Shown here piece by piece: positions 1 to 3,214 of a DNA stretch of 64,000 nt. The translations under genes and the position numbers were made by a program. The stretch is taken from the IMG/VR virus record IMGVR_UViG_3300024272_000051, positions 32,001-96,000 of that record. One strand, written 5' to 3'. This stretch comes from a virus (Duplodnaviria; Caudoviricetes). The notes under the pieces were generated by a model that was not told where the DNA came from, searched no databases, and was given only the letters and a program-made list of their open reading frames with translations. Each line of letters starts with the position of its first letter. The stretch's first letter is position 1.

Positions 1-63
1 AAAATTGCAGACCCAGAGGCTTTAACGGATAATATATACGGTTTCCGGTGGAGTCTAAAATAG
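1..63 (+). CDS. 3' end of a gene truncated by the window edge (KIADPEALTDNIYGFRWSLK*)
   Basis: Open frame 1 to TAG at 61-63, directly followed by a terminator. Confidence 0.5.
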   Translation, partial: KIADPEALTDNIYGFRWSLK

Positions 64-100
64 GGCAGAGCGACCATCGCAGTCGCTCTGTTCTTTATTT
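63..100 (+). terminator. Intrinsic terminator
   Basis: gggcagagcgac...gtcgctctgttc stem followed by tttattt. Confidence 0.75.
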
Positions 101-172
101 GGCTTAAGCAATATTTTATTGTTATTGATAAATTTTCAAGAAATTGTCAAATAGTTTTATGTTTCCCAAACC

Positions 173-201
173 TTGACACATCCAATTGTTTGTGTTAGCA
201 T
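173..201 (+). promoter_or_regulatory. Sigma-A promoter with extended -10
   Basis: TTGACA (173-178), 17-nt spacer, TG-n-TAGCAT (196-201). Confidence 0.7.
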
Positions 202-210
202 ATGGAACAT

Positions 211-246
211 GAACACATATTCAAACGAATGTTCGAATAAGTGTTC
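211..246. promoter_or_regulatory. Three abutting LexA/DinR (Cheo)-like boxes
   Basis: GAACacatATTC, AAACgaatGTTC, GAATaagtGTTC; each has one mismatch to GAAC-N4-GTTC, 12-bp period, just downstream of the -10. Confidence 0.7.
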
Positions 247-276
247 GAAAATGAAGTGGCAACTGTAATGCTTTGC

Positions 277-309
277 AAAAGAAAAGAGGACAAGCCGAAG
301 CTTGCCCTC
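277..309 (-). terminator. Intrinsic terminator of the antisense RNA
   Basis: Minus strand reads gagggcaagc-ttcg-gcttgtcctc-ttttctttt. Confidence 0.75.
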
Positions 310-394
310 CCCGCCCGAAAGGAATACACCAAACCCCAAGGCGGCATTGCAGCAAAACACTGCAAGTGAACGACATACTGCAATATGTCTTCAC
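277..394 (-). ncRNA. Putative antisense small RNA (~118 nt)
   Basis: Own promoter at 401-429, several hairpins, ends in a C(UUCG)G-capped hairpin plus UUUUCUUUU. Confidence 0.6.
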
Positions 395-400
395 GACTGT

Positions 401-429
401 AGTGTACCACGCAAACAAACAAAAATCAA
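401..429 (-). promoter_or_regulatory. Leftward sigma-A promoter for the antisense RNA
   Basis: Minus strand TTGATT, 17-nt spacer, TG-G-TACACT. Confidence 0.65.
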
Positions 430-451
430 CAGAAATCTGGAGGTATGCTAC

Positions 452-760
452 ATGAAGTCGAATCTCTCTCTTGGGCAATTTAGAATTGAAGCAGAAGCAT
501 ATAAGGATATTATTGTTACGTTTGATGATCCTCTTAGCCCACTGAAGTTTTCACTCCAATTTGATCATATTGCTGTGAATATTTCAGCCTCACCTTACAT
601 CGCCTTAAAAAGTAGTTCTGCAAGAATGTGTCTTAACCATATTTGTTCCATAAAAAGACATAGAAGATCTGACGATGAACAATCATACATATTTCTATGC
701 AATGACTACACATTGAGCGATAGACCTACTCAGGTTAGGTACACATTGAGGTGTAGTTAA
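452..760 (+). CDS. Hypothetical protein (102 aa), putatively SOS-inducible
   Basis: GGAGG RBS at 439-443 before ATG 452; the upstream part of the track ORF is leader. Confidence 0.7.
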   Translation: MKSNLSLGQFRIEAEAYKDIIVTFDDPLSPLKFSLQFDHIAVNISASPYIALKSSSARMCLNHICSIKRHRRSDDEQSYIFLCNDYTLSDRPTQVRYTLRCS

Positions 761-789
761 AAGATTTCGGAATACTTCATAAATTATTG

Positions 790-818
790 TTGACATTATA
801 CGCATTATGTGATATAAT
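790..818 (+). promoter_or_regulatory. Consensus sigma-A promoter of the mazF-mrpR operon
   Basis: TTGACA, 17-nt spacer, TATAAT with extended -10 TG. Confidence 0.85.
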
Positions 819-847
819 CAGCCCATCAAGATAAGGAGGGACTGAAC

Positions 848-1282
848 ATGAGCGAGACTCGTCACGAAGTGCGTATGGCTCCGATGATCGGAGAAGTTTA
901 CCTGATGAAGTTTGAAGGTAGCGGGAATGAGCAGAACGGGTGGAGACCTGGCGTGGTGTTCCAAAACAACACCGGCAACGCGCATAGCCCGAATGTGATA
1001 GCATTGCCATTAACAAGTTCAATCAAAAAAGCAATGCAGCCAACTCACGTGGTTGTCTACGCTGCAGATACTGGTCTACGCATGGATAGCATGGTGTTAT
1101 GTGAAAATCCTGAAAAGATGTCTAAGTCTAAAATCGGCAAGTTCATTACTAAGCTCTCCGATGATTACATGAGAAAGATCGCAATGGCTAATCTGATTGC
1201 AACGTCAGCGATTTCTTTTCTAAACGAAGCGGACTTGTTGGACGCATGGAGAAAGTCTATGAAGTTTAACTGTGCGGCATAG
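848..1282 (+). CDS. mazF: PemK/MazF family endoribonuclease (no adjacent antitoxin)
   Basis: GEVY..GxEQxGWRPGVVFQN..N..SP..IALPLTS..PTHV..DS..LCE; catalytic Arg and Thr positions retained; strong RBS. Confidence 0.9.
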   Translation: MSETRHEVRMAPMIGEVYLMKFEGSGNEQNGWRPGVVFQNNTGNAHSPNVIALPLTSSIKKAMQPTHVVVYAADTGLRMDSMVLCENPEKMSKSKIGKFITKLSDDYMRKIAMANLIATSAISFLNEADLLDAWRKSMKFNCAA

Positions 1283-1291
1283 GAGGTAGTC

Positions 1292-2224
1292 ATGTACAAC
1301 GAAGAGCGCAAGATGAGGTTCCTTGAAGAGACGAGATCATCCGTCGGATTTGGTAAGTCTGTATTTAAGACTATAGCCCCTTATGAACACGAGGCAAAGA
1401 TGGATCTGTGTGAGCTACCGATTGAGATTTTACAGCCAGTAGCAAACTCCAACTTTGGTTCACGAACGAGAACATCAGATTCAACCATCGCATTTCTTCG
1501 CGCATACACAACTTGGTGTAGGGAAGAAGGATTTCCAGTTGGGGATGGTGTATATCTGTTAAAAACAGAAATGGACGAAAAAGTTCGCCGTCTAATGATT
1601 GCGTCGCCTAAGCATCTTGAAGCCACACTAAACAAGGCGTTTGCACCAGTCCAGTCTGAAACAGTGGACTGTCTTTATCGTTGTTATTTATGGATGGCTT
1701 TTGCGGGGTTGAAGGATGTAGATGCACTGGATGTCAAAGTTTGCGAAATTGACTTTGATACGATGTTAATTGAACACAACGGAAGGTCTTATGAACTGTA
1801 TCGTGAAGCGGTTCCCACATTTAAAATGGCATGTAGTGCTACGCAATTCCGCTATATCAACCCAAATTATGGATCAGACAAGCAGGGTGGATATCGAAAT
1901 AGATATCCGGGAGAACTCCTCATGCGAGGTATTCGTTCGGAGCAAATTAAAATTGCAACTGTAAGAGCAAGCATTGGCAAGGCATTTAAAGAATGTGGTG
2001 TGGAAACTACCTATAACAAAATCCGACTGTCTGGATTGTTCTACAAGGCATATGAGATGGAACGATGTGGCGAAGAAGTTAATTTTGATGGTATTGTTGA
2101 AGAAAGACTTTCTCAGATGGATCACAAATACCACAAGAACTACACAAGAAATAAGGAAGCAAATGGAATTCGACGCGACTTGTTTGATGACTACGGTTGT
2201 TGGAAAGCAGCATTTGCAAGATAA
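1292..2224 (+). CDS. Degenerate tyrosine-recombinase-fold protein, MrpR/YopR-like lytic-cycle repressor
   Basis: MYNEExKxRFL N-terminus; LWMAFAGL and KIRLSG motifs lack the catalytic Arg and HxxR His; 310 aa. Confidence 0.65.
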   Translation: MYNEERKMRFLEETRSSVGFGKSVFKTIAPYEHEAKMDLCELPIEILQPVANSNFGSRTRTSDSTIAFLRAYTTWCREEGFPVGDGVYLLKTEMDEKVRRLMIASPKHLEATLNKAFAPVQSETVDCLYRCYLWMAFAGLKDVDALDVKVCEIDFDTMLIEHNGRSYELYREAVPTFKMACSATQFRYINPNYGSDKQGGYRNRYPGELLMRGIRSEQIKIATVRASIGKAFKECGVETTYNKIRLSGLFYKAYEMERCGEEVNFDGIVEERLSQMDHKYHKNYTRNKEANGIRRDLFDDYGCWKAAFAR

Positions 2225-2253
2225 AGAAGGAGGGGGAAGCCCTTCTTCTTTTT
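2225..2253 (+). terminator. Intrinsic terminator after the mrpR-like gene
   Basis: aagaaggaggg-ggaag-cccttcttctt followed by a T-run. Confidence 0.7.
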
Positions 2254-2283
2254 TAATTAGCTCAATTTTAAGGAGTGAAAAGT

Positions 2284-2481
2284 GTGGCACTAACATATCC
2301 AAAAGGAGAGAGTGTGTGGGTTAGTTATTACGATAAAGAACACAATCTTCGCTACATCACAACATCAAAGCCAACGAGGGATTTTTATTATCTCTATACA
2401 CTGCAAGATGGGAAGTTTGTCAAGCTTGGAAAAGACAAGAACCCGGCAGCTCTTGAGGAAAAATATATAAAATTAATATGA
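2284..2481 (+). CDS. Small hypothetical protein
   Basis: AAGGAG RBS before GTG. Confidence 0.65.
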   Translation: MALTYPKGESVWVSYYDKEHNLRYITTSKPTRDFYYLYTLQDGKFVKLGKDKNPAALEEKYIKLI

Positions 2482-2505
2482 GTTTTGCGATCTGGTCGCT
2501 TAACA

Positions 2506-2551
2506 ACACGCTCATCAAGGTTTGGAAACTTTGATTTAGAGCGTGCTTTTT
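2506..2551 (+). terminator. Long hairpin/terminator upstream of the replication operon
   Basis: cacgctc-atcaaggttt-gg-aaactttgat-tta-gagcgtg then cttttt. Confidence 0.6.
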
Positions 2552-2638
2552 AATGCCTTGATTTAGGTATTAAGTGGAAGGTGTGCAGTGTTTCTATTAT
2601 CCATATAAAACACGAGTTTGGATGAAAGGGGTGATGAT

Positions 2639-3214
2639 ATGTCAAACAACAAAGAACGATTTCTTGAACTTTGCGCAACAATCAAACGCGACGGCATCGA
2701 CGATCTGATGAGGTGGCTGGAAAAAAGTGATTTTTACACAGCACCTGCAAGCACAAAATATCATGGAGACTACAGTGGTGGTCTTCTTGAGCATTCTTTG
2801 AATGTATACGATGAATTAAAGCGCATTTTACAAGCGTATCCAGAAGTCCGAGTGGATGAAGAGTCTATTGTAATCGCGTCTCTATTCCATGATTTGTGTA
2901 AGGTTGGTCTTTACACCAGCGAAAAGAGGAATCGAAAGAATGAGCTTGGGCAATGGGAAAGTTACGATGCCTACACAATCAAAGAAAAGTTCTGTTACGG
3001 AGGACACGGCAGTAAGTCAGTATTTATTCTCCAGAACTTTATAAGGCTTACACCAGAAGAAGCGATAGCCATCAACTGCCACATGGCATCCTGGGATGGC
3101 AACAAAGATGTCGGAAATGCATTTGAACGCTGCCCATTTGCTTGGCTGGTTCATGTGGCCGACGAAGCAAGTACGTTTATTAAAGAGTCAAAAGCAAACA
3201 TTGAAAGCAATTAG
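2639..3214 (+). CDS. HD-domain phosphohydrolase
   Basis: FYTAPASTKYH..GGLLEHS..LFHDLCK..GHG..HM..AD motifs. Confidence 0.85.
   Translation: MSNNKERFLELCATIKRDGIDDLMRWLEKSDFYTAPASTKYHGDYSGGLLEHSLNVYDELKRILQAYPEVRVDEESIVIASLFHDLCKVGLYTSEKRNRKNELGQWESYDAYTIKEKFCYGGHGSKSVFILQNFIRLTPEEAIAINCHMASWDGNKDVGNAFERCPFAWLVHVADEASTFIKESKANIESN

Follow-up and report, generated by a model that had tools for sequence, protein, structure and literature searches.

A predicted minus-strand small RNA gene conserved within the leader of a putatively damage-controlled gene in large uncultured phages

The locus and the predicted sRNA gene

The window analysed here, 64,000 nucleotides long, spans bases 32001-96000 of an IMG/VR phage record of 104 kb, whose estimated completeness is 88%. 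All long genes around the locus lie on the plus strand, and HD, ERF, SSB-like, nuclease and DnaB-like genes are found beyond the MrpR-like gene with which the following list of plus-strand features ends.

ending at ~61, plus strand: 216-aa gene, the upstream neighbour
62-94, scored on both strands: two-way intrinsic terminator closing the upstream 216-aa gene
173-201, plus strand: predicted sense promoter TTGACA-17-TGtTAGCAT (TGn), 10/12 in the consensus scan
from the sense promoter to the ATG at 452, plus strand: ORF102 leader, ~244 nt
439-443, plus strand: Shine-Dalgarno sequence GGAGG of ORF102, ~45 nt past the predicted sRNA 5' end and not overlapping it
452-760, plus strand: ORF102, 102 aa, the gene whose leader the sRNA opposes
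790-818, plus strand: promoter TTGACA-17-TGnTATAAT, a perfect match to the consensus, preceding the PemK-like gene
848-1282, plus strand: PemK/MazF-like gene (Pfam E 2e-21)
1292-2224, plus strand: MrpR/SroF-like (integrase-fold) repressor candidate (MrpR_N_CB domain, E 3e-10)

The PemK/MazF-like gene has no evident antitoxin gene and stands directly upstream of the MrpR/SroF-like gene. In cultured-phage records, neither the DNA of positions 100-800 nor the MrpR-like protein found a match. A single contig was recovered from the genome collection, labelled as a Bacteroides MAG, but promoters and Shine-Dalgarno sequences look Firmicutes-like instead. The phage would be a ~100-kb uncultured temperate phage of Firmicutes type.

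On the opposite strand, the leader of ORF102 contains the elements of a compact gene for a small RNA (sRNA), which are listed below together with the plus-strand complement of one of its loops.

429-424, minus strand: -35 hexamer TTGATT, followed by a 17-nt spacer
409-401, minus strand: extended -10 TGgTACACT, with TG at 409-408 and TACACT at 406-401
397-277, minus strand: predicted sRNA of ~118-121 nt, starting putatively at G394 or G397 and ending within the U-tract
394-366, minus strand: hairpin 1 (predicted fold), four double-changed pairs among homologues
365-347, minus strand: hairpin 2 (predicted fold), 100% of cells paired, three double-changed pairs
344-311, minus strand: hairpin 3 (predicted fold), whose large loop contains the conserved motif GGUUUGGUGUAUUCCUUUC
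317-334, plus strand: complement of the hairpin 3 loop, GAAAGGAAUACACCAAAC, Shine-Dalgarno-like
277-312, minus strand: intrinsic terminator with a GC-rich stem at 310-285, a UUCG loop and a UUUUCUUUU tail, five double-changed pairs

A preliminary description of this DNA had announced a minus-strand promoter, three hairpins and a UUCG terminator followed by a U-tract, all within a leader of ~240 nt, and each of these elements was found where it had been placed. The sRNA lies wholly within the ORF102 leader, and no further plus-strand promoter was detected between the sense promoter and ORF102. The terminator was also picked up independently by the consensus scan (312..283), and no U-tract follows its stem on the plus-strand side. 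The sRNA promoter reaches 8/12 in the consensus promoter scan, for which a cut of 9/12 was used, and was for that reason unlisted; with a score just below the cut, its reality rests on its conservation. The RNA running from 394 to 277 has a predicted minimum free energy of -53 kcal/mol, compared with -32.7 ± 3.4 kcal/mol for 200 shuffled sequences (z -5.98), none of which folded as stably (0/200).

Two further details of the preliminary description are real in the window and do not extend to the relatives. The hairpin 1 loop and the 5' arm of hairpin 2 both carry UUGCAGU, from which an alternative pairing had been proposed, and AUUGCAGU in hairpin 1 is able to pair with ACUGUAAU at 262-269, a site outside the overlap. 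Neither the repeat with its alternative pairing nor the extra site is conserved: the tip of hairpin 1 is inverted in the relative L011 (ACUGCAAU), which abolishes both the repeat and the match to 262-269, and the loops of the other variants are unrelated, so neither feature belongs to the conserved design. The inverted segment (372-385 in the window, ~2921-2934 in L011) is a short palindrome which has opposite orientations in the two closest phages. The possibility that the sRNA encodes a peptide was rejected because its homologues carry 1- and 2-nt indels.

Conservation, covariation and strand of the RNA

Relatives were gathered from the contigs of ORF102 homologues and from IMG/VR loci reached through the PemK-like gene, which retrieved relatives from that database when a single-sequence search with ORF102 had returned none. 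They have in common the gene order ORF102, PemK-like, MrpR-like, ..., ERF. An sRNA homologue is present between the sense promoter and ORF102 in L003/4, L005, L011-L020, L022-L027 and L030. Altogether, five sequence variants (A to E) occupy the same slot, with the -10 motif, four hairpins and a terminator kept, and individual folding of every distinct sequence of variants A and B gave the same four-hairpin plan of 121-128 nt; two variant B sequences compared with shuffles gave z values of -4.5 and -6.9. Alignment of 12 sequences showed -35 TTG, TG, -10 TAYACT and the next ACA to be invariant, with a promoter spacer that is entirely different between groups. TGnTAYACT and the ACA are kept in all five variants, and the terminator stems diverge in sequence among homologues with their pairing retained. 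The three more distant variants, which all have a TGnTAYACT-ACA promoter as well as a terminator, are the following.

Variant C (L009, L010): 155-161 nt depending on the ends chosen; z -2.5; -35 TTGCGC
Variant D (L029): 127 nt; z -6.9; weak covariance-model match of 16 bits
Variant E (L040, L049): 136 nt; z -6.6

Variant E came from an IMG/VR scan for the promoter pattern TTGATTTT-N12-14-TGNTAYACTACA, whose matches were mostly the mRNA promoter ahead of MrpR-like genes in other large phages. It lies opposite the leader of a diverged ORF of 102 aa, in antisense orientation to this ORF, which is preceded by an S24 repressor gene and followed by PemK-like and MrpR-like genes. A promoter of the form TTGATTTT-N13-TGnTAYACTACA, together with its downstream sequence, is shared by 54 other IMG/VR contigs of 80-140 kb; one of them, L037, pairs PemK-like and MrpR-like genes, and there the shared promoter drives the MrpR-like gene.

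A covariance model (R1) was built from nine distinct sequences. Its matches scored 77-137 bits and were confined to the minus strand and to the syntenic place, with one copy in the 104-kb phage genome. In the model-fitted alignment of the nine sequences, which leans towards the model, 88% of the pair cells were standard pairs, compared with 35-48% when the partners were slid by 1-3 columns, and 12 pairs had changed on both sides (four in hairpin 1, three in hairpin 2 and five in the terminator). The covariation score of the sRNA alignment was reached by none of 500 shuffles, and an independent MAFFT alignment analyzed with RNAalifold gave double changes in 9 of 32 pairs. Hairpin 3 is predicted in every variant A or B homologue and shows no double-changed pair in the fitted alignment because the register of its stem shifts between groups.

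That the structure arose by chance, or is the decaying remnant of something no longer functional, is scarcely credible. Several relatives do manage without the cassette, but its conservation exceeds that of the neighbouring coding DNA (between the window and L011, the sRNA is 85% identical at the DNA level and its promoter 92%, compared with 78-82% for the genes alongside), its pairs covary, and five diverged variants follow the same plan.

The strand of the functional RNA was addressed with the same alignment. Among the model pairs, 52 cells hold G-U, which is valid on the minus strand only, and 21 hold A-C and would become G-U if the plus strand were the RNA. In eight of the nine sequences, the minus strand has a more stable predicted fold than its complement, by 16 kcal/mol in the window and by ~10 kcal/mol in most homologues. 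The excess of G-U over A-C, the promoter on the minus strand and a U-tract found on that strand only indicate that the functional RNA is the minus strand. These data bear directly on the alternative in which the functional RNA would be the plus-strand leader of ORF102, a structured cis-regulatory element sensing a protein or a ligand, with the minus-strand promoter and terminator being incidental. The plus strand also folds well (z -5.0), and the leaders of the relatives with an S24 repressor gene (S24-type) contain an anti-Shine-Dalgarno hairpin, CUCCCG-N17-CGGGAG. We nevertheless regard this alternative as highly improbable: pairing bias and folding both favour the minus strand, the conserved -35, TG and -10 are read on that strand, and no Rfam cis-regulatory family matches.

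Searching positions 1-3000 against Rfam 15 (E<=10) returned noise only, the best overlap being SorY (E 1.4; 18.5 bits, where the family's gathering score is 111), and the sRNA belongs to an undescribed RNA family absent from Rfam. A weak ilvH-RNA-like match within the HD-domain gene (2858-2934; E 0.43; 21.7 bits, where the gathering score is 55) is most likely due to chance.

The preliminary description had proposed a self-contained minus-strand sRNA gene and had named conservation in related phages as a check. Promoter, four-hairpin plan and terminator do recur in relatives with compensatory changes, and the proposal is further borne out by the covariation and by the bias of G-U pairs to the minus strand. 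On these comparative grounds, the minus-strand sRNA gene is very probably real.

The sense promoter, its control and the ORF102 product

In most relatives, a divergent gene encoding a 260-aa HTH_3+Peptidase_S24 repressor lies upstream of ORF102, and the sense promoter of the window is homologous to the one beside this repressor gene (CCTTGACA...GTTTGTGTTA). The window, L011 and L021 are devoid of the S24 repressor gene and have a plus-strand gene upstream instead; no S24 domain was found anywhere in the 104-kb record, which is incomplete. Two overlapping elements follow the sense promoter of the window.

211-246: imperfect 36-nt palindrome just after the sense -10, a likely operator, containing AAACGAATGTTC at 223-234
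223-234, read on the minus strand: LexA/Cheo-like box GAAC-N4-GTTT, GAACATTCGTTT, ~15-27 nt past the sense start

The LexA-like box is conserved with one change in L011, and a similar GAACAAACGTTT is present in L021. Patterns of the GAAC-N4-GTTT type show no enrichment in the window, with 8 occurrences against 5.2 expected, so that the support for the box is positional and comparative rather than statistical. At the same promoter, the box stands in for the S24 repressor gene of the relatives, and this replacement supports control by DNA damage. A RecA-cleavable repressor would thus have been swapped for a host LexA-type box, which fits well with the SOS box that the preliminary description had assigned to this promoter. 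Damage control of the sense promoter, by the S24 repressor in relatives or through the GAAC-N4-GTTT box, is therefore plausible as judged from these sequences.

The cassette is absent from L006-8 and L032-35, which are of the S24 type, and from L021; missing in several relatives, it is dispensable. L021 has kept TGCGCAAAAGAA at ~1465-1500, resembling a remnant of the sRNA terminator tail, which suggests that in that lineage the cassette was lost rather than gained. The S24 repressor gene and the LexA-like box each occur with or without the sRNA, and all four natural combinations exist.

In the S24-type loci, the repressor gene directly follows the cassette and is read the same way, and the cassette terminator abuts the repressor promoter. 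This arrangement invites the reading that a longer minus-strand transcript runs into the S24 repressor gene, with the cassette as its 5' leader or attenuator, in the manner of a P_RE-like establishment transcript antisense to the lytic leader. We hold this to be distinctly unlikely. The cassette terminators are strong and conserved, with U-tracts, and a separate promoter, TTGACAT-16-TGgTAGTCT, follows the terminator in relatives. Moreover, relatives lacking the cassette still carry the repressor gene, and the cassette is intact in the window and in L011, where no minus-strand gene lies downstream; its persistence in these two phages indicates that it is self-contained. In L004 (2332-2426) and at the equivalent places of S24-type loci, the lytic and the predicted repressor promoters face each other, with start sites only ~20-25 nt apart.

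ORF102 belongs to an unnamed 102-aa family with the motifs SLGQFR and SASPYIALK. A large protein collection yielded 21 homologues, none of them named, and no Pfam or PHROG family was found. The AlphaFold model is confident (pLDDT 88) and consists of one helix and eight strands arranged in a beta-barrel. Foldseek comparison of this model with the PDB gave nothing at E<=0.001; the best match was B. subtilis YojF (1njh, E 9e-3), the others being PH/Ran-binding-like barrels. [quoted passage not shown]

The position of ORF102 and its putative damage control beside an MrpR-like gene recall the Sar-SroF (YopT-MrpR) pair. According to a recent preprint on SPbeta-like phages, the small antirepressor Sar (YopT, phi3T_99) inactivates the integrase-fold repressor SroF (MrpR/YopR), and sar is LexA-repressed and located one ORF from sroF (bioRxiv 10.1101/2025.11.27.690993). 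The passages of that preprint consulted here mention no antisense RNA acting on sar. ORF102 is modelled as all-beta and has no detected YopT likeness, the fold search with its model having given no YopT-like match. An antirepressor role of ORF102 is thus an analogy, not a finding.

Possible action of the sRNA and comparison with known systems

The best reading of these data, which we consider probable, is that the sRNA acts as an RNA brake on ORF102, a second lock beside the damage-responsive control of transcription. Transcription of the sRNA would be constitutive, driven by its own extended -10 promoter of sigma-A type and stopped at its own intrinsic terminator. The sRNA is encoded antisense inside the ORF102 leader of 244 nt, and ORF102 would be the first gene of a damage-controlled early operon. 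Being perfectly complementary to the leader from ~+70 to +187, the sRNA could bind the small number of sense transcripts made despite repression, and ORF102 would consequently be made only at full derepression of the sense promoter. The sRNA would thereby set a threshold, or filter noise, for ORF102.

The predicted 5' end of the sRNA (394-397) leaves the ribosome binding site uncovered (Shine-Dalgarno sequence at 439-443), and no plus-strand terminator-like site, that is, a hairpin followed by a U-tract, was found in 395-451, so that the sense leader has no attenuator; the hairpin that S24-type relatives have at the equivalent place is likewise devoid of a U-tract. The two best-known antisense mechanisms therefore do not apply, and the likely means of action are duplex decay, masking of a Shine-Dalgarno-like element and promoter collision. 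By the first of these routes, the ~118-bp perfect duplex would undergo RNase III-type cleavage and decay. By the second, the sRNA would mask a conserved Shine-Dalgarno-like element of the leader, GAAAGGAAU (317-325), a possible standby or stabiliser site. By the third, the convergent promoters, ~187 bp apart, would collide, and full induction would also silence the sRNA promoter. The three routes are mutually compatible. In S24-type relatives, it is the true Shine-Dalgarno sequence that is held in the CUCCCG-N17-CGGGAG hairpin, and the window has no such anti-Shine-Dalgarno hairpin. When the target stretch was blocked in silico, the predicted accessibility of the ORF102 Shine-Dalgarno sequence went down in 6 of 10 homologues and up in none, a weak trend.

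The hairpin 3 loop motif GGUUUGGUGUAUUCCUUUC is conserved across groups although antisense action in cis needs no such conservation, which hints at an extra constraint, be it a target in trans, a protein or a plus-strand motif. On this basis the sRNA might act chiefly in trans: the CU-rich loop of hairpin 3, AUUCCUUUC, resembles the 3' end of 16S rRNA and would pair with the Shine-Dalgarno regions of other mRNAs. Targets could be, for example, the PemK/MazF-like gene or host genes, and the damage-induced leader would then serve as a sponge removing the sRNA. Besides the conservation of the loop motif across variants, which pairing in cis does not require, variant B offers some support. Its loop is complementary by eye to the ribosome binding site of the PemK-like gene over 9-11 bp (11 in L004, 10 in L023, 9 in both L005 and L025), with co-variation between AUUCC/GGAAU and GUCCC/GGGAC. 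By duplex energy, this site ranks within the best 10% at five of seven variant B loci when set against a background of 223 start regions. However, the sites of L022 and L023 fall outside the best 10% by the same measure, and the apparent co-variation of loop and binding site rests on two or three lineages. The match is only ~6 bp in the window (rank 0.15), and for variants C, D and E, which are independent, the PemK-like site ranks at 0.66-0.74. Furthermore, every CU-rich loop can pair with any Shine-Dalgarno sequence, the best of 223 phage start regions scanned with the hairpin 3 region (-31.7) is no better than the values given by shuffled loops (mean -33.4), and the 18-nt loop complement is unique. 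Action mainly in trans is in our opinion unlikely.

A narrower form of this idea, in which the loop mimics the 16S 3' end and serves as an antitoxin-like trans brake on translation of a constitutively transcribed PemK/MazF-like gene, with the damage-induced 244-nt leader sponging the sRNA, appears very unlikely. If true, an RNA-sponge relay would link the SOS response to a phage-borne MazF-like toxin beside an MrpR-type repressor, and the MazF-like nuclease would be released as part of the induction switch.

The RNA brake on ORF102 that we favour has several precedents. Double control by LexA and an sRNA is known for tisB/IstR-1 of E. coli, where the constitutive IstR-1 pairs far upstream of the tisB ribosome binding site and is outrun only by full induction (PMC13159721). 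IstR-1 is divergently encoded with partial complementarity to its target, whereas the phage sRNA is fully cis-antisense over ~118 bp. There is no sequence relation between the two systems, the phage setting is of Firmicutes type, and tisB encodes a small membrane toxin, in contrast to the predicted soluble 102-aa product of ORF102. Control of tisB by IstR-1 acts through a standby site. The S24-type relatives may have a similar layout, with the Shine-Dalgarno sequence in a predicted hairpin and an upstream Shine-Dalgarno-like motif, predicted to be single-stranded, in the paired stretch.

In phage P22, the sar RNA limits synthesis of the Ant antirepressor (reviewed in PMC5415839). With ~69 nt, sar covers the ant ribosome binding site, whereas the phage sRNA described here, of ~120 nt with four hairpins and without homology to P22 sar, ends ~45 nt upstream of that of ORF102. 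The sar RNA is short and antisense to the ant transcript, and its promoter is convergent with that of the antirepressor. SymR/symE and lambda OOP/cII are likewise cis-antisense pairs involving SOS-linked genes, with duplex-dependent decay. SymR covers the 5' end and start codon of symE and OOP covers the 3' end of cII; the overlap of the phage sRNA, in contrast, is confined to an untranslated leader.

Among Firmicutes elements, pT181 RNAI, pIP501 RNAIII and pCF10 Anti-Q are multi-hairpin RNAs of 85-140 nt encoded inside long sense leaders. These Gram-positive countertranscripts lie upstream of the ribosome binding site, have promoters convergent with the sense promoter and induce an intrinsic terminator in the nascent leader. 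The phage sRNA resembles them in its multiple hairpins, its place in a long leader and its convergent promoters. Unlike in pT181 and pIP501 attenuation, the ORF102 leader has no intrinsic terminator downstream of the pairing region.

The type of control proposed here is thus already familiar from P22 sar, IstR-1/tisB, SymR, OOP and the Gram-positive countertranscripts; the RNA family is undescribed, and covariance model R1 defines it as a new, well-supported family of phage sRNAs. Large uncultured phages of Firmicutes type with MrpR/SroF-like repressors are only now beginning to be understood. In these phages, the locus would represent a module related to the LexA-controlled antirepressors of Bacillus phages, plus an optional RNA layer on the damage-controlled gene, and the four natural combinations constitute a comparison set for what an antisense threshold may add to a lysis-lysogeny switch.
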